From a virus (taxonomy: Duplodnaviria; Heunggongvirae; Uroviricota; Caudoviricetes), in IMG/VR virus record IMGVR_UViG_3300026224_000011, positions 1 through 28,437 of that record: DNA of 28,437 nt, one strand, 5' to 3'. The notes beneath the pieces were generated by a model. The model did not search any database and was not told the origin of the DNA. It was given only the letters and a program-made list of their open reading frames with translations. This document shows, piece after piece, positions 1-28,437 of this stretch; the stretch's first letter is position 1; every line of letters starts with the position of its first letter. A program made the position numbers and the translations under genes.

Positions 1-95
1 AGGACTGGTTGCGCGAAGTGATCGTGAAGCTTAATGACTGGCCGTCAAACCGTGTGCATGAACTGCTGCCCTGGAACTGCTCAACTGTAAAATAA
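1..95 (+). other. 3' end of an unidentified plus-strand ORF entering from upstream of the window
   Basis: Plus frame 3 is open from the window edge to TAA at 93-95 (...DWLREVIVKLNDWPSNRVHELLPWNCSTVK); the other plus frames are closed; family not recognised. Confidence 0.3.
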
Positions 96-123
96 TCCTT
101 ACGCTACGTACTTCTCGGGGCGC

Positions 124-729
124 TTACATCGGCGTGGCGCTCACGGTCAGACCACCTGCCGTGGTGGATGCTGACAGGGTGATGTCATTCCCCCAGGCAC
201 CTTTGGTCCGGGTGGTGACCGTCAGCTGAGAGGCTTCCGATTGGTATTCCCCCGTAACCAGAAGCGAAGGCGTCTGCGTCATTGCTTCCACCAGTGCCGG
301 AATGATTTTCGACGGTCCATCACCGGTTTCCACATCCACCGAAACCTGCTCACCGGCAACCCATACCGACAGTGTTCCGCTGCTGATTGCCGTACCGTTG
401 ACGGTAACTGCGCCGGTTGCTGCCTTTCCTGCGCCACTGTCTGCAATACCGATAACATCCAGTTGCAGATAGCTGTTGGCATTAATGGCCGCGCGCGCCA
501 TTGCAGCGGCCAGCGAACCGGCCCCGAAATACAAATCCGCTTCGTCTTCGGAATACACGGAAACGGCATTCAGGGGCGTGGCGGTGCCGCCTGACAGCAT
601 CGGGCCAATCACCAGAACACGCTGTTCGTTACCCGGCAGCGTGTTAACGGCCAGCCGGGTATTAAACTCAAAATGCACACCGGGCTTACGGATGCCGCCC
701 GAAATGGTGTCAAACTGAATTTCACTCAT
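124..729 (-). pseudogene. tail sheath protein (Mu gpL-like), N-terminal 201 codons only
   Basis: ATG at 729 with AGGTGG RBS; sheath-like N-terminus; TAA at 124-126, and no sheath-like continuation in any frame of 1-123. Confidence 0.45.
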
Positions 730-964
730 CGGAATCCACCTGTTTCTCTCTCTTCGCCTTCGCTTTTACCTGCACGGCGTCCTGTTCAGTCGTCACGGTG
801 GTTTCAGGCTCATCCTTCACCAGAATCAGGTCACCGTCCTGAACGGCGCGCCGGTAATAAGCGGTGTTCTCAACGGTCACCGCTTCCGTGGTGATGTATT
901 TCCGGGCGTTATCCTCCATCGGGAACTTCATCCCGGGAGCCGCCTTAACCTTCATTTTGTTCAT
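722..964 (-). CDS. small phage protein (Mu gp38-like position)
   Basis: 80-codon ORF between the gp37-like and sheath genes; its stop overlaps the sheath start; start codon uncertain. Confidence 0.4.
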   Translation of the reverse strand: MNKMKVKAAPGMKFPMEDNARKYITTEAVTVENTAYYRRAVQDGDLILVKDEPETTVTTEQDAVQVKAKAKREKQVDSDE

Positions 965-1526
965 GCTGTTGCTCTCTTAATTCATCCAGACCACAGATAT
1001 CTGCGCCGTATTGCGTACCAATTCGCAGTAAATCCGGGTCAGGGTCTGACAGCCTGCCGTGGTAGCGGTTGAAGAGGCGATCCGCTTCTGCGCCACGCTC
1101 CGGCCATTTGCCGTTCTCCAGCGCGTGCTCCACCCAGCGGGTATCGAACTCACAGGCAAACACGGACATTGCCCGCTCTGCCACGCCGGTGTTAAACAGC
1201 GTCCTGACCCGCCCGGGTTCGAAATAATCAATCTCCAGCCCCAAATCCTGACCGGTCAGCAGACGACGGACGGATTCAACCAGCTGGTTTGTCCCGACCT
1301 CATCCCGGACGGTGCCTCCCTGTCTGGCGCTCTGTTCGCTGCGGGTGTTGTAATCACCCACCACAACCACAAAGCGTCCTGTGGCAATGTATTTCCGGCG
1401 TGACGTGGAATAGCGTTCGGTTTTCACGATGCCGCCGAACGTCACCCAGGCTGCCGGAAGGCTGCGAACAATCCGGCCCGGGTCTTCATCCAGTTCACCG
1501 GCATAGGTGCGGACATCCTGCACCAT
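945..1526 (-). CDS. Mu gp37-like protein (DUF1834-like, from memory)
   Basis: 193-aa ORF following the gp36-like gene; conserved position in Mu-like head/tail joining region. Confidence 0.5.
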   Translation of the reverse strand: MVQDVRTYAGELDEDPGRIVRSLPAAWVTFGGIVKTERYSTSRRKYIATGRFVVVVGDYNTRSEQSARQGGTVRDEVGTNQLVESVRRLLTGQDLGLEIDYFEPGRVRTLFNTGVAERAMSVFACEFDTRWVEHALENGKWPERGAEADRLFNRYHGRLSDPDPDLLRIGTQYGADICGLDELREQQHEQNEG

Positions 1527-3674: not shown

Positions 3675-4862
3675 TTACTCATCTCCTGCGTAATAGTCGT
3701 TTCCTGCATAACGGGCGATATCTTCTGGATCAGTGCCCATCATGGAACAAATGGCGATATCGACATCGACGTCATCGCCGGTTTTAATCTGCGCCGGGGC
3801 CGGTGACGGCGTTTTGGGTGGTTTGCCGCCGGTCTGTGTCTGACTGAGCGCAACAAGTTTCGGTGCGTTCTCCAGCCAGGACTTAAAGCCGTTGATATCG
3901 CGACCGGCGTAATCTTTCGCCCAGTCTTCCTGGGCCGGAAGCAGTCGCCCGTCAGACAGTGCCGCCTGAATCAGTGCCCCGGCTTCGGCCTCACCGGACT
4001 GTTGCGCCAGTGCGGCATAACGCCCCTGAAGTTCTTCAAAGGCAGCGAGGGAAATGTGTTTTGACGGGTCATAGGCATTGGCTGACAGGCTGGCGATTTG
4101 CTCGTCTTTCTGATTCAGCAGGGCCAGCAGACCAACAGAAGCCGCTGCCGTTCCTTTGCCACCAGAGACAGCATCAATAATTTTTTGCAGCTCTGCGCAT
4201 ACTTCCTCTGCGGTTGAGGTTTCCGGCAGCGTCAGCAGCCAGCGTAACTGCGCGAGTAAATTTGCTAATTGTTCCGGGTTCACGGTTTTGGTCTCCGTTT
4301 CAGTTGACAGACTCGCCAGACGGCTGGCCGCAGCCAGCATGACCGCGTCCATACCGTCGAGCGCAGGGGTATTGGTCAGCGCAGCGTGTAACAGCTCCAG
4401 CACTTCGCCGCGCTTGTTGTAGGCAAAAACAGGGGAAATAAACTTGTACTCACCGGCGGCAATCATGGCCGCCGCGTTCTCCGTCCACTCCACACCGGTG
4501 GCATACAGGCCCGCGCCTTCTCGCCATTCCACCTGGCTGAACCAGCCCGCCGCCGGGGCGGGCTTGCCGTTGTTTACGGCGCGCAGCGTCTGATGTTCGT
4601 AATCAATGACAAAAGGCGTGGTACGGGCTGCCACCTGCGCGACAAGCTGCGCGGCCAGTTCAGCGGTCAGCACCCATTTACCGCTTTCGACTTCATCGGT
4701 ATGTGGGCGACCATCCACCGCGCTGAACTCGCCCGCCGGAAACAGCTGGATTTCGCTGTGGGTTGCTTTAGTAATTTCGAGGCTTAATGCCGCAATGTTC
4801 AGTTTCATACGCGGCATGATGACGGAAGGGGAACACGGGGTACTGTGGAGGGTGTTCAGCAC
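3675..4862 (-). CDS. Mu I-like head protease/scaffold protein
   Basis: 395-aa ORF at the Mu I position between G and T; start uncertain (GTG 4862, ATG 4817 or ATG 4808; none has a clear RBS). Confidence 0.6.
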   Translation of the reverse strand: MLNTLHSTPCSPSVIMPRMKLNIAALSLEITKATHSEIQLFPAGEFSAVDGRPHTDEVESGKWVLTAELAAQLVAQVAARTTPFVIDYEHQTLRAVNNGKPAPAAGWFSQVEWREGAGLYATGVEWTENAAAMIAAGEYKFISPVFAYNKRGEVLELLHAALTNTPALDGMDAVMLAAASRLASLSTETETKTVNPEQLANLLAQLRWLLTLPETSTAEEVCAELQKIIDAVSGGKGTAAASVGLLALLNQKDEQIASLSANAYDPSKHISLAAFEELQGRYAALAQQSGEAEAGALIQAALSDGRLLPAQEDWAKDYAGRDINGFKSWLENAPKLVALSQTQTGGKPPKTPSPAPAQIKTGDDVDVDIAICSMMGTDPEDIARYAGNDYYAGDE

Positions 4863-22739: not shown

Positions 22740-23390
22740 ATGAGTAAACAAATCGCTGATGATTTTTCCTTTTCTCAGGATAGAAAAGAAAGCATTCAAG
22801 ACAGAATCAAACAACTGATTGGCACCAGGAGCCTGCGTAAAGCCACCTCAGACTGGGGATTACCGTACTCGACCATAAATAACTACTTTGAAAAAGGCAC
22901 GACACCTGGCCTAAATGTGGTCGCTACAATAGCAAAATTAGAGAATGTATCACTGGAATGGCTGGTCTACGGTGAGAACAGAAGTGTTCCAATGGTAGAA
23001 AAATCAAGGGTGACTACAGAAGACGTTAACCGCCCCGATACAAGTATTGTTGACGAAATACTAAGACGAGCCGCTCCAGAAGATAGAGAGCGTCTTATTG
23101 ATATGCTTTGTTGTATTGGTATCAAAGGAGTCCTGGAACGCCTACAACAACCCACCAGGCAAGCGAAACAGGCCTACAACGACCTAGACGAACAGGAGAA
23201 TGCCATCAGAAGCCTGAACATCAGGGAATCGCTAAAAGACGCCATATGTATGGCATTAGATGGTAACGAAGAAATTGACAAAGAGATTTTGCGCCGCATC
23301 GAATCTCATATACGAGCTAGGTCGCCAGGTGGTCAGACCGTTGCCACGCCGGAGCAAGAAACGAAGCCTGTAAACAAGAAATCAGCATAA
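22740..23390 (+). CDS. prophage repressor (c-like)
   Basis: 216 aa; ATG after AAGGAAAG RBS; HTH-like N-terminal region; divergent from ner as in Mu; AT-rich. Confidence 0.65.
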   Translation: MSKQIADDFSFSQDRKESIQDRIKQLIGTRSLRKATSDWGLPYSTINNYFEKGTTPGLNVVATIAKLENVSLEWLVYGENRSVPMVEKSRVTTEDVNRPDTSIVDEILRRAAPEDRERLIDMLCCIGIKGVLERLQQPTRQAKQAYNDLDEQENAIRSLNIRESLKDAICMALDGNEEIDKEILRRIESHIRARSPGGQTVATPEQETKPVNKKSA

Positions 23391-23702
23391 GCGCCTCGTT
23401 TTGGCGGGGCGTATGCTGTTAGCTAATCAGCAATAACCACAACAAAACCGAACACAACAGATGAGAACAAATTGAGGAAAACGGGCAAGGATAAAACACT
23501 TTTTAAAAGCATTTAAAACCCGTTAAGTTTGTAGCAGAACCAGATCAAAAGCGCCCAGAAAAAAGCGCAAAAAAAAGCGTTTTTGGTCATTTCTCACAAA
23601 TCCGCCCAGAATCACACTAAATCACCACACCCCGCGCCACACAAGGCTTGCAGGTTCTACCAGGCTGCACGAACTCCGCCCAGAATTGATCACCACCCCA
23701 CA
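23391..23702. repeat. prophage c-end terminal region (attL-equivalent) with candidate transposase-binding repeats
   Basis: cgcccagaa at 23552-23560 and ccgcccagaat at 23602-23612 and 23677-23687; terminal dinucleotide CA at 23701-23702. Confidence 0.55.
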
Positions 23703-24724
23703 ATCTCGGTGGGAACGCCCATCATGTTGTAGGAAACAGCGGAGAACCAGTCGAGATTGGGGAACATCTTTTTGCTCTCCCACATCACCGTTTCCAGGCG
23801 ATCGGCAATGTTGTACATCTTCAGCGAGCCGCCTTCCTGCGAGAGCTGCTTCGCCACACGCTTGATCACCTGATGGCGCGGGTCGGCGATGGTATAAACC
23901 GGATGGCCAAAACCAATCACCACTTCTTTGTTTTCCACGCGCTTGCGGATATCCGCTTCGGCTTCGTCCGGCGTTTCGTAGCGTTGCTGGATCTCCAGTG
24001 ACACTTCATTCGCCCCGCCGTGCTTCGGCCCGCGCAGTGCACCAATCGCGCCGATAATGGCTGAATACATATCAGAGCCGGTGCCCGCAATCACCCGGCT
24101 GGTAAAGGTGGAGGCGTTAAACTCATGCTCGGCGTACAGCACCAGCGAAATTTGCATCGCCTTTTCCCAACTTTGCGACGGCTTTTCACCATGCAGCAGA
24201 TGCAGGAAGTGACCGCCGATAGAGTCGTCATCGGTTTCCGGCTGGATGCGTTCGCCGTTGTGGCTGTAGTGATACCAGTAGAGAAGAATCGAACTCAGCG
24301 ACGCCAACAGTTTGTCGGCAATATCCCGCGCGCCGGAGACGGTGTGCCCCTCTTTTTCCGGCAGCGTGCAGCCGAGCGCGGAAACGCCGGTGCGCATAAC
24401 ATCCATCGGGTGCGACGCCGCAGGTAAAGCCTCCAGCACGGTACGCACGTTAGCCGGTAAACCGCGCAGGGCTTTCAGTTTCGTTTTGTAAGCGGCGAGT
24501 TCGTCACGGGTCGGCAGTTTGCCGTGGATCAGCAGATGCGCCACTTCTTCAAATTCGCAATGTTCTGCGAGATCGAGAATATCGTAGCCGCGATAGTGCA
24601 GGTCGTTGCCGCTTTTGCCTACGGTACAAAGCGCGGTGTTACCCGCCGGAACGCCAGAAAGTGCCACAGATTTTTTTGGTTTAATGACATGGGTACTGTT
24701 TTGCAGGATCGTTGTGTCGCTCAT
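23690..24724 (-). pseudogene. prpC: 2-methylcitrate synthase, C-terminally truncated by prophage insertion
   Basis: 344-aa ORF matches PrpC through ...NMMGVPTE, then IVGW-stop encoded by phage DNA; native PrpC is about 389 aa (recalled). Confidence 0.9.
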
Positions 24725-24749
24725 GTTGTCCTCGTCATTGTTATCATTT

Positions 24750-24870
24750 GTAGGGTCGAGATTGTTGTCGGATGCGACGCCATGCGTCTTATCCGACCTA
24801 CAGTTCAGTACACCTCGTAGGCCTGATAAGTCGCGTCAGCGGCGCATCAGGCATCGGTTGTCGAATACAA
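24750..24870. repeat. REP/BIME-type palindromic repeats between prpB and prpC
   Basis: ...tgtcggatgcgacgccatgcgtcttatccgacctaca... and inverted ...gtaggcctgataagtcgcgtcagcggcgcatcaggca... match the REP consensus. Confidence 0.55.
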
Positions 24871-24885
24871 CCACCAGACGTTTGT

Positions 24886-25776
24886 TTATTTCGCCTGGCT
24901 ACGGGCAAACAGGTCGTCGAGCTTCTCTTCGTACTGGTAGTAGTTGATGCTTTCGTACAACTCGTTACGGGTCTGCATGGTGTCGATCACGCTTTTCTGC
25001 GTGCCTTCCTGGCGCAGGATGTTGTAGACATGTTCAGCGGCGCGGTTCATGGCGCGGAATGCTGAAAGCGGGTACAGCGCCATTGCGACATGGGCGCTGC
25101 GTAATTCATCGGTGGTGAACAGGGGCGTGGCGCCAAATTCGGTAATGTTGGCGAGGATTGGCACCTGCACCGCATCGGCAAACTGGCGGTACATGGCGAG
25201 TTCAGTAATCGCCTCCGGGAACAGCATCTCGGCACCGGCTTCAACATAGGCTCGCGCGCGTTCGATCGCGCCGTCCAGACCTTCCACTGCCAGCGCATCG
25301 GTGCGCGCCATGATCACAAAATCAGGATCGGTTTTCGCATCCACCGCCGCGCGGATCCGATCAACCATCTCCTCTTTCGAGACGATCGCTTTGTTCGGAC
25401 GATGACCGCAGCGTTTCGCGCCGATCTGATCTTCAATATGCAATCCTGCCGCACCGGCTTTAATCATCGATTTCACAGTACGCGCCACGTTAAAGGCCGA
25501 AGAGCCAAAGCCGATATCGGCATCAACCAGCAGCGGCAGCGAGCAAACGTCGGTGATACGCCGAATATCGGTCAGCACATCATCAAGGGTAGAAATACCG
25601 AGATCGGGTAGCCCCAGCGAACCTGCCGCCACGCCACCACCGGAGAGATAAATCGCCTGATATCCGGCACGCTGCGCCAACAACGCATGGTTGGCGTTAA
25701 TGGTGCCAACAATTTGCAACGGAGTTTCTTTGGAGAGTGCGGCGCGAAACGCTTTACCTGGAGAGTGTAGAGACAT
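24886..25776 (-). CDS. prpB: 2-methylisocitrate lyase
   Basis: 296-aa ORF recognised as PrpB; upstream of prpC and divergent from prpR. Confidence 0.92.
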
Positions 25777-25822
25777 AGCCCATCCTTTGTTATCAACTTG
25801 TTATTTTCGTTGATAAACACAA

Positions 25823-25838
25823 AGCAAGGGCTATGCCA
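25823..25838 (-). promoter_or_regulatory. sigma-54 promoter of the prp operon (-24/-12)
   Basis: Minus strand reads TGGCAT-AGCCC-TTGCT, matching TGGCAC-N5-TTGCW with GG-N10-GC spacing; about 45 bp upstream of prpB. Confidence 0.6.
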
Positions 25839-25913
25839 CAATTGATAAACTCAAAATAACCAATACATTTCAATTTGTTAACAAAAACACTCTTACTTAA
25901 TCTGCAAATATGC

Positions 25914-25971
25914 GTTTCAGTTAACGTTTCAGGCAATGTTTCACCGTGTTTCATTGCAACAATTATGAAAC
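25914..25971. promoter_or_regulatory. GTTTCA repeat array (candidate PrpR enhancer sites)
   Basis: GTTTCA at 25914, 25926, 25937 and 25946, with inverted TGAAAC at 25966-25971; 80-150 bp upstream of the sigma-54 promoter. Confidence 0.4.
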
Positions 25972-26014
25972 AAGACTAAACCCAATATTCGGTTTCTTAA
26001 TTCTTTGGGGTGCT

Positions 26015-27601
26015 ATGGCACATCCACCACGGCTGAACGACGATAAACCCATTTTTTGGACGGTATCAGTGACGCGCTTGTTCGAACTGTTTCGCGATAT
26101 CAGCCTTGAGTTTAATCACCTGGCGAACATAACGCCTATCCAGCTTGGCTTTGAAAAAGCGGTGGCCTACATCCGCAAAAAACTGGCAAGTGAACGCTGC
26201 GACGCTATCATCGCCGCTGGCTCTAACGGCGCGTACCTGAAAAGCCGCCTGTCAGTGCCCGTTATTTTGATTAAACCGAGCGGCTTTGATGTGTTACAGG
26301 CGCTGGCAAAAGCCGGAAAACTTACCTCATCGATTGGCGTCGTTACTTATCAGGAAACCATTCCGGCACTGGTGGCGTTTCAAAAAACCTTTAATCTGCG
26401 TCTCGACCAACGTAGTTACATCACCGAAGAAGACGCACGCGGGCAGATTAACGAGCTAAAAGCTAGCGGCACCGAAGCCGTGGTCGGTGCCGGGCTGATT
26501 ACCGATCTGGCAGAAGAAGCCGGAATGACCGGAATTTTTATCTATTCCGCTGCCACCGTGCGCCAGGCGTTCAGCGATGCGCTGGATATGACACGCATGT
26601 CTCTAAGGCATAACGCCCAGAACACTACCCGCAACGCCCTGCGTACTCGTTACGTTTTGAGCGATATGCTTGGTCAATCGCCACAGATGGAACAAGTGCG
26701 GCAAACCATTTTGCTCTATGCCCGATCCAGTGCGGCGGTGCTGATTCAGGGAGAAACGGGAACCGGTAAAGAGCTGGCGGCTCAGGCGATACATCGGGAA
26801 TACTTTGCCTGTCATGACGCTCGCCACGGTAAAAAATCACATCCGTTTGTTGCCGTTAACTGCGGAGCGATTGCCGAATCATTGCTGGAAGCGGAGCTAT
26901 TTGGCTATGAGGAAGGGGCATTTACCGGCTCGCGACGCGGAGGTCGCGCCGGGCTGTTCGAAATTGCCCACGGCGGCACGCTGTTTCTTGATGAAATTGG
27001 CGAAATGCCGCTGCCTTTGCAGACTCGCCTGCTGCGGGTGCTGGAAGAAAAAGAGGTCACTCGCGTCGGCGGACATCAGCCTGTTCCGGTAAATGTGCGG
27101 GTCATCAGCGCCACCCACTGCAATCTGGAAGAGGATATGCAGCAAGGACGTTTTCGCCGTGATCTGTTTTATCGACTGAGTATTTTACGTCTGCAATTGC
27201 CGCCACTGCGCGAGCGGGGTGCGGATATTCTGCCGTTGGCGGAAAGCTTTTTAAAAGTGTCTCTGGCGGCGCTCTCCGCCCCATTTTCTGCTGCGTTACG
27301 CGAGGGGTTAAATACCTGCCAGGTGGTTTTATTGCACTATGAGTGGCCGGGAAATATTCGTGAACTCCGCAATATGATGGAGCGACTGGCGCTATTTTTA
27401 AGTGTGGAACCGACGCCGGATTTAACGCCGCAGTTTTTGCAACGGCTACTGCCGGAATTAGCCCACGAGTCGGCGAAAATTACCGCCTCTCCCTTGCTGA
27501 CACCCCAACAGGCACTGGAGAAATTTAATGGTGATAAAACAGCAGCGGCGAATTATTTAGGCATCAGCCGAACGACGTTCTGGCGGCGGCTGAAAAATTA
27601 A
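26015..27601 (+). CDS. prpR: sigma-54-dependent propionate catabolism activator
   Basis: 528 aa from ATG 26015 ([12 protein letters not shown]...); AAA+ sigma-54 interaction domain ([13 protein letters not shown]); C-terminal HTH. Confidence 0.92.
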
Positions 27602-27604
27602 ATT

Positions 27605-27637
27605 GCCGGATGCGGTGTGACCCCCTATCCGGCCTAC
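27605..27637. repeat. REP element downstream of prpR
   Basis: gccggatgcggtgtgaccccctatccggcctac matches the REP palindromic unit. Confidence 0.55.
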
Positions 27638-27709
27638 AAAATCATGAATTTCAATATATTGCATTCACCGATAGACGTGCACATCGGGCATATTTACATG
27701 GCTTCAGAA

Positions 27710-27985
27710 TTACTTCTTCTTATAAATATTTGCCGTGCCGTGGATCTTATTGTCAGTCTGACCGGAGGTCAGTACCAACACATCAGCACCTTTTTCATCC
27801 GCTTTTTTGATTAAATCTTCTTTTGCATCTGCAGTCGACATTTCATTACTTGTTGAAATATCACCTATTTTTTCATATTGCGATTCAACCTTTTCAAATT
27901 CCGCTTTAGTCATCAATTCAGCGGCATAGACGTTTGTGACAACAAAAGCTAACGCACCAACTAAGAGCTTAGTTCCAGTTTTCAT
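27710..27985 (-). CDS. yahO: small periplasmic protein YahO
   Basis: 91 aa from ATG 27985 (GGAG RBS); signal peptide then ...[23 protein letters not shown]...; ORF-track start at 28039 rejected. Confidence 0.85.
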
Positions 27986-28310
27986 AGGTGAACTCCATAA
28001 TGTGTGATTGGCTAATGCCCTGAAGCTAACAGTCATCATCAGGGTTGATTAATAAGTAGTTCAGCGGTTAGGAAAAATCCACAGGAAAAGAGAATATATT
28101 TGTATTGTTCTTAATGCGAACCACTCTTGTCCGACTGGTTAATAACTTTCACTGCAATTATCGCTGGTGTTATTTGAATTATTTTTTATAAAAATCTCAA
28201 ATTTTCACTCTGCCAGATATTCAATATAAAACTTACGCCACCCACATTATTTTTCTGAACAAAAAAAACAAAACAATCTATTGAGTTGATTTTTATAAGC
28301 ATTATTTGCT

Positions 28311-28437
28311 GGTGATGCTGCCAACTTACTGATTTAGTGTATGATGGTGTTTTTGAGGTGCTCCAGTGGCTTCTGTTTCTATCAGCTGTCCCTCCTGTTC
28401 AGCTACTGACGGGGTGGTGCGTAACGGCAAAAGCACC
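28311..28437 (+). mobile_element. IS1 left end (partial, runs off the window)
   Basis: GGTGATGCTGCCAACTTACTGAT inverted repeat at 28311, followed by the characteristic IS1 sequence. Confidence 0.9.
28366..28437 (+). CDS. insA: IS1 InsA, N-terminal fragment
   Basis: GTG at 28366 encodes MASVSISCPSCSATDGVVRNGKST... Confidence 0.8.
   Translation, partial: MASVSISCPSCSATDGVVRNGKST

Follow-up and report, generated by a model that had tools for sequence, protein, structure and literature searches.

Interruption of the tail-sheath gene of a Mu-like Escherichia prophage by an IS66-family insertion sequence

The closest described counterparts of the gene considered here are the tail-sheath genes of phages Mu and D108 (gpL) and of Mu-like (FluMu-type) prophages, which share the gene order gp36, gp37, DUF2635/gp38, sheath and tube. 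The assembly of contractile sheaths from their subunits depends on a conserved C-terminal core, and L amber mutants of Mu produce heads without tails. A second point of comparison is provided by the cryptic prophages of Escherichia and Shigella that have been inactivated by an insertion sequence (IS), in which, as in the present case, a single IS has hit one structural gene while the rest of the prophage looks complete. IS knock-out of prophage structural genes is commonplace. Elements of the IS66 family are characterized by 20-30-bp terminal repeats starting with GTAAGCG and by 8-bp direct repeats (PMC11946415).

The DNA analysed, a stretch of 28,437 nt which is referred to in its full length as the window, carries on its minus strand an ORF of 201 codons (124-729) that starts with ATG and ends with TAA at 124-126. 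All 201 residues of its product are identical (100%) to residues 1-201 of annotated tail sheath proteins of 473 aa, which bears out the sheath-like ORF described in the initial annotation. These full-length counterparts carry the sheath domains PF04984 and PF17482, with PF17481 (sheath domain II) recorded for some of them; on the 201-aa fragment alone the latter remained sub-threshold (24.4 bits against a cut-off of 31.4 bits). The window-type sheath can be aligned over its full length with D108 L and with the SfMu sheath at about 27-29% amino acid identity, the closest sequenced phage being the Mu-like Klebsiella phage ST405-OXA48phi1.1 (59%). Its placement also corresponds to that in a Mu-like late operon, with the DUF2635 gene (722-964) before it and a putative tube gene after it (the latter seen in L006 and L001, see below); upstream and on the same strand follow, after DUF2635 (Mu gp38-like), Mu Gp37, Mu Gp36 and the Mu-like major head protein gpT. 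Unlike Mu and D108 gpL, the sheath gene of the window is split after codon 201 by an IS, beyond which its 272 C-terminal residues are located, and it does not represent an intact, functional sheath gene.

The position of this split was defined by a megablast search of window positions 1-1000 against complete E. coli genomes, which yielded 55 long matches. Among the matches listed (55 complete E. coli genomes), sheath homology starts abruptly at window 127, the annotation underlying these matches being 'phage tail sheath C-terminal domain-containing protein'. The match in strain TUM1881 is 100% identical and belongs to an annotated sheath gene of 1422 nt (473 aa). In an alignment with the intact sheath gene, identity set in at window 127 and was absent from the positions preceding it; the intact protein, whose first 201 residues are those of the window ORF, continues beyond residue 201 as ...TVSATPM/ANGEMDPD... 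(the slash marks the split). The breakpoint at window 127 is real, and chance is no explanation for it. Stop codons are present in all three minus-strand frames of positions 1-126, in agreement with the initial annotation, which had found no continuation of the sheath beyond the TAA. It had also been right about plus-strand frame 3, which has no stop codon between the window edge and that at 93-95 and specifies an unrelated C-terminus (DWLREVIVKLNDWPSNRVHELLPWNCSTVK, followed by the stop).

Homology searches assigned this plus-strand ORF to the C-terminus of the IS66 transposase TnpC. The 30-aa peptide matched PF13817 ('IS66 C-terminal element') with E=3.9e-6 and 27.4 bits at profile positions 15-39 of 39, this score falling below the 30-bit cut-off because the window edge cuts the match. 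At the nucleotide level, positions 1-128 of the window are 98.4-98.5% identical to annotated IS66-family tnpC sequence in more than 1300 E. coli genomes. A complete related copy of 2757 bp with the organization tnpA-tnpB-tnpC is found on plasmid pNMBU-W12E19_01 (L002, 1371-4127) and is 98.4% identical to the window over the shared 128 nt; its products score above the cut-offs of the NCBIfam IS66 models, with 293 bits for TnpA (NF038385), 125.6 for TnpB (NF033819) and 463.9 for TnpC (NF033517, cut-off 180). The imperfect terminal repeats of the L002 copy were missed by a repeat finder and were located by eye and by pattern search, while a fragmented chromosomal copy (L005) gave nothing on ends or duplications. 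In the window, the right terminal inverted repeat (IRR; 97-127) begins on the minus strand with GTAAGCGCCCCG... and pairs with a left repeat (IRL) that begins with GTAAGCGCTCCG... on a partner contig, k141_4623, described below. The IRL sequence GTAAGCGCTCCGTCTGTAACG is present both on that contig and as the start of the left end of the L002 copy, and the motif GTAAGCGC opens both IS termini. The TAA of the sheath ORF (124-126) falls within the conserved IS terminus GTAAGCG, and the ORF therefore ends right after its last native codon. Among the matches of the IS end in complete E. coli genomes, no sheath/IS junction was found, all of them running on into other contexts.

Four contigs encode a protein identical to the 201-aa sheath fragment, and each of them stops inside the IS. 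Among these are AEJW01000383.1 (NCBI), which derives from Escherichia sp. TW09231 and whose 201-aa protein is WP_001290030.1, and k141_9134 (ENA sample ERZ27241745), both being 100% identical to the window. The initial annotation had left room for a sequencing frameshift; such an error, or a chimeric assembly artefact, as the cause of the premature stop could be thought of in a draft contig with repeat ends, but it is given next to no credence here, since the identical junction is present in two independent assemblies (AEJW01000383.1 and the ENA MEGAHIT contig), a reciprocal junction with duplication exists, and positions 1-127 are bona fide IS DNA instead of frame-shifted sheath sequence, by which a frameshift is excluded.

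This reciprocal junction was predicted from the intact sheath gene and the left end of the IS, on the assumption that 8 bp (ATCGGCGT) had been duplicated; after translation, two of the nine predicted junction proteins were found as exact entries in the protein collection. One is a 285-aa chimera consisting of ITRRYRRSAYTPM followed by sheath residues 202-473, in which ITRRYRRSAYTPM comprises ten residues from the IS left repeat and then TPM from the duplicated target; it corresponds exactly to UniRef UPI000493F70C of Escherichia sp. TW09231, the same strain as that of the 201-aa fragment. The other is a 273-aa form starting at Met201, and it lies on k141_4623, a contig of 15,011 nt from the same ENA sample (ERZ27241745) as k141_9134. 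Other partial sheath proteins, in the 90% clusters examined initially (P0126 and others), were rejected as plain contig-edge fragments of native sequence with no junction.

Contig k141_4623 carries the IS left end (GTAAGCGCTCC...), followed by the 8 bp ATCGGCGT and then by sheath codons 201-473. With a slash at the IS boundary, the window junction reads ...GGGGCGCTTAC / ATCGGCGT GGCGCTCACGG..., and the junction on k141_4623, in window orientation, reads ...TTCACCGTTCGCC ATCGGCGT / GTAAGCGCTCCGTCTG...; in the intact target (L001), ATCGGCGT is present in a single copy. Beyond the C-terminal part of the sheath, the tail module on this contig is intact and encompasses a putative tube gene of 124 aa, two small ORFs and the tape measure, and subsequently genes for a DNA-circularization protein, a gpP-like protein, Gp45, GP46, Baseplate_J, Gp48, tail fibre and fibre assembly. 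The role of the 124-aa gene (k141_4623/L006, also L001), which has no Pfam match, was assigned by position. In-silico removal of the IS and one 8-bp copy restored an ORF of 1422 nt, the product of which is identical to the TUM1881 sheath and to WP_247779533.1, with seven nucleotide differences, all of them protein-silent. The coordinates of the relevant features are listed in Table 1.

Table 1. Features at and around the split sheath gene (coordinates refer to the window)
Feature	Position	Strand	Remarks
Right end of IS66-family insertion sequence, inside which the window begins	1-127	+	Related copies about 2757 bp
Last 30 codons and stop of IS66 transposase TnpC	3-95	+	PF13817 DDE_Tnp_IS66_C
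Right terminal inverted repeat (IRR)	97-127	-	Minus strand GTAAGCGCCCCGAGAAGTACGTAGCGTAAGG; ends ...CGCTTAC at 127; exact match to IS end of L002
Truncated tail-sheath ORF	124-729	-	Native codons 1-201 are bases 127-729; TAA 124-126 from IS terminus
8-bp target-site duplication ATCGGCGT	128-135		Repeated at L006 141-148 (k141_4623) beside IS left end
DUF2635 (Mu gp38-like), directly upstream of sheath, intact	722-964	-	PF10948 match; full length relative to L009
Mu-like prophage, left and middle part	128-23702	-	Repressor, ner, transposases A and B, Mor, lysis, terminase, portal, head genes, gp36, gp37

Considering that excision restores an intact sheath and that the tail module lies next to the IS, a simple transposition event in which nothing was lost is indicated, and it is very probable that the tail-sheath gene was the target of an IS66-family element, whose transposition duplicated 8 bp and left a Mu-like prophage that otherwise looks intact. 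The point of entry into the sheath gene (Mu gpL type, 473 aa) would lie between codons 201 and 202, with ATCGGCGT as the duplicated target. Window 1-127 is the right end of the element, and the IS terminus GTAAGCG places a TAA in the sheath frame, ending the ORF after native residue 201; the IS genes are on the plus strand and thus antiparallel to the late genes of the prophage. The insertion is clean and probably recent, since both halves still encode intact protein.

An IS-mediated deletion or rearrangement, by which the prophage would have been truncated at the IS and its distal sheath and tail genes lost or moved, might be suspected from a window that displays a single junction, from the frequency with which adjacent deletions are mediated by IS elements, and from the finding that the site is spanned by no complete genome in the collection. 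It is nevertheless very unlikely, because the distal sheath and the full tail module adjoin the opposite IS end, with an identical 8-bp duplication and in the same sample and strain, because precise in-silico excision gives back an intact protein, and because matching duplications are not expected from deletion or inversion between two IS copies. Where the initial annotation had proposed a deletion or insertion, the insertion has been substantiated (an IS66-family element with an 8-bp duplication), and the deletion or truncation has been contradicted, as the rest of the sheath and the tail module are found beyond the IS. The sequence upstream of the window was retrieved on a separate contig only, and contains the IS left end, ATCGGCGT, sheath codons 201-473 and the tail module. 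The exact junction was found neither in GTDB species-representative genomes nor in any of 5,426 complete E. coli genomes, so that all support for transposition into the sheath gene comes from one lineage.

With respect to the element itself, three hallmarks of IS66 are present at the locus, namely the TnpC C-terminal element, terminal repeats starting with GTAAGCG and the 8-bp target duplication, a combination shared with the IS66-family elements of the tnpA-tnpB-tnpC type annotated in E. coli plasmids and chromosomes (an example being the copy at NZ_CP042885.1 46775-49531). In contrast to the complete annotated copies, the IS of the window is known from 127 nt in the window and 140 nt on the partner contig only; these visible ends are 98-99% identical to the closest IS66 copies at the nucleotide level (two and one mismatches, respectively), and the left 140 nt, which include the tnpA start, differ from the L002 copy by one mismatch. 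The stretch between both ends is presumably one IS of roughly 2.76 kb, whose interior, judging from copies that are 98-99% identical, would contain tnpA, tnpB and tnpC. The size and content of the element, as well as the linkage of both contigs, would follow from the matching duplication and from the co-occurrence of both junctions in one strain and in one sample. An element larger than one IS, with passenger genes or composed of two copies, could be accommodated between the two ends, given that the interior is unassembled, that no single contig spans the IS, and that IS66-related transposable units with passenger genes have been described (tIS66; PMC12888890). We regard this as very improbable, because a plain 2757-bp copy (tnpA-tnpB-tnpC) shares 98-99% identity with both the left 140 nt and the right 127 nt and because the contigs break about 140 nt into the IS, near the k-mer length, as expected for a multi-copy repeat.

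The points at which the contigs end are in keeping with a multi-copy repeat: k141_9134 and k141_4623 both end about 140 nt into the IS, near the assembler k-mer length (as reflected in their names, k141), and the TW09231 contig AEJW01000383.1 ends 30 nt into it. Multi-copy repeats delimit the window, a draft contig, on either side (IS66 on the left, IS1 on the right), and its start inside the IS is due to the way in which short-read assemblers end contigs within sequences of this kind. At its right end, about 28270-28437, an IS1-family element is present which is about 93% identical to IS1A/IS1B, with E. coli genomes containing ten copies of IS1 or more. Across the IS66-family element, the two contigs can be joined into one scaffold. 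Public databases already list both sheath fragments as 'partial' proteins, and in TW09231-lineage assemblies the two should be annotated as one IS-disrupted pseudogene.

As for the consequences for the phage, the prophage is likely to be defective in tail formation. The 201-aa fragment should not form a sheath, because the 272 C-terminal residues with PF04984 and PF17482 are missing, and it would accordingly be non-functional in that role. In addition, the tube, tape-measure and neighbouring genes would probably be subject to a polar effect of the insertion, which puts about 2.76 kb of untranslated IS sequence in antisense orientation ahead of them. As the transposition and head genes look intact, the prophage, once induced, would be expected to replicate, to fill heads and to yield no infectious particles; heads would be made, and functional contractile tails would be absent. 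It might be argued that the split has been kept because it is useful, with the 201-aa fragment or a tailless, transposition-competent prophage acting against superinfecting Mu-like phages or conferring another benefit on the host; the absence of further decay is the sole observation in favour of such a role, which we hold to be highly doubtful. For prophage surveys, the sequence is better scored as a complete, probably tail-defective prophage. Beyond annotation the insertion into the sheath gene has little import, the apparent truncation of the prophage being explained by the inactivation of one structural gene by IS66, a routine event.

The state of the remaining genes was assessed by matching 41 genes annotated in L009, a related prophage, against the window. 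A counterpart was detectable for 35 of them, the sheath gene being the only truncated one. Full-length matches without frame breaks were obtained for 31 genes, including those for the repressor, ner, transposases A and B, Mor, one holin, terminase and portal, as well as F, G, protease, gpT, gp36 and gp37, and three short accessory ORFs matched over most of their length (58/60, 43/57 and 74/76 residues). Six L009 genes (GH108 lysin, ead/Ea22, DUF4752 and three hypothetical ORFs) lack a counterpart in the window, which reflects the differing accessory content of the two prophages. The lysis cassette of the window (11665-12093, minus strand) encodes a 142-aa Peptidase_M15_4 protein where L009 has the GH108 lysin. 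A gene for a DNA methyltransferase of 246 aa (9955-10695, minus strand; PF01555 N6_N4_Mtase) is located between the DUF1804 gene and the large terminase gene, a position at which L009 has only about 50 nt, and it therefore looks like an added accessory gene. The two prophages are mosaic, the head protease (3675-4862) and the repressor (22740-23390) of the window being 87.8% and 80.6% identical to those of L009, respectively, as compared with 97-100% for most neighbours; the divergence of the repressor suggests a different immunity type. An Rfam scan of the whole 28,437-nt window returned no matches.

The left end of the prophage is situated at window 23702, where its minus strand begins with TGTGGGGTGG..., and the prophage sits inside prpC (2-methylcitrate synthase; 23690-24724), with homology to E. 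coli prpC beginning at 23703. The remaining prpC ORF encodes 344 aa, as opposed to 389 aa in E. coli, and its citrate-synthase domain match ends at profile position 327 of 357; the propionate catabolism operon of the host is probably disrupted. The chromosomal flank (23703-28437; prpC, prpB, prpR and yahO) is about 91.7% identical to E. coli. The proteins matching the sheath fragments are named for Escherichia sp. TW09231, which we take to be an environmental, cryptic-clade Escherichia, and the host is thus presumably not E. coli in the strict sense.

A separate break was noted in the sheath gene of a related prophage (L007, 3436-4855; Logan SRR15989181), the frame of which is interrupted after about residue 161 (...LLVTG), with the result that the same 273-aa C-terminal ORF is called there. 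This break could reflect a genuine frameshift that arose independently or, alternatively, an error in the assembly.
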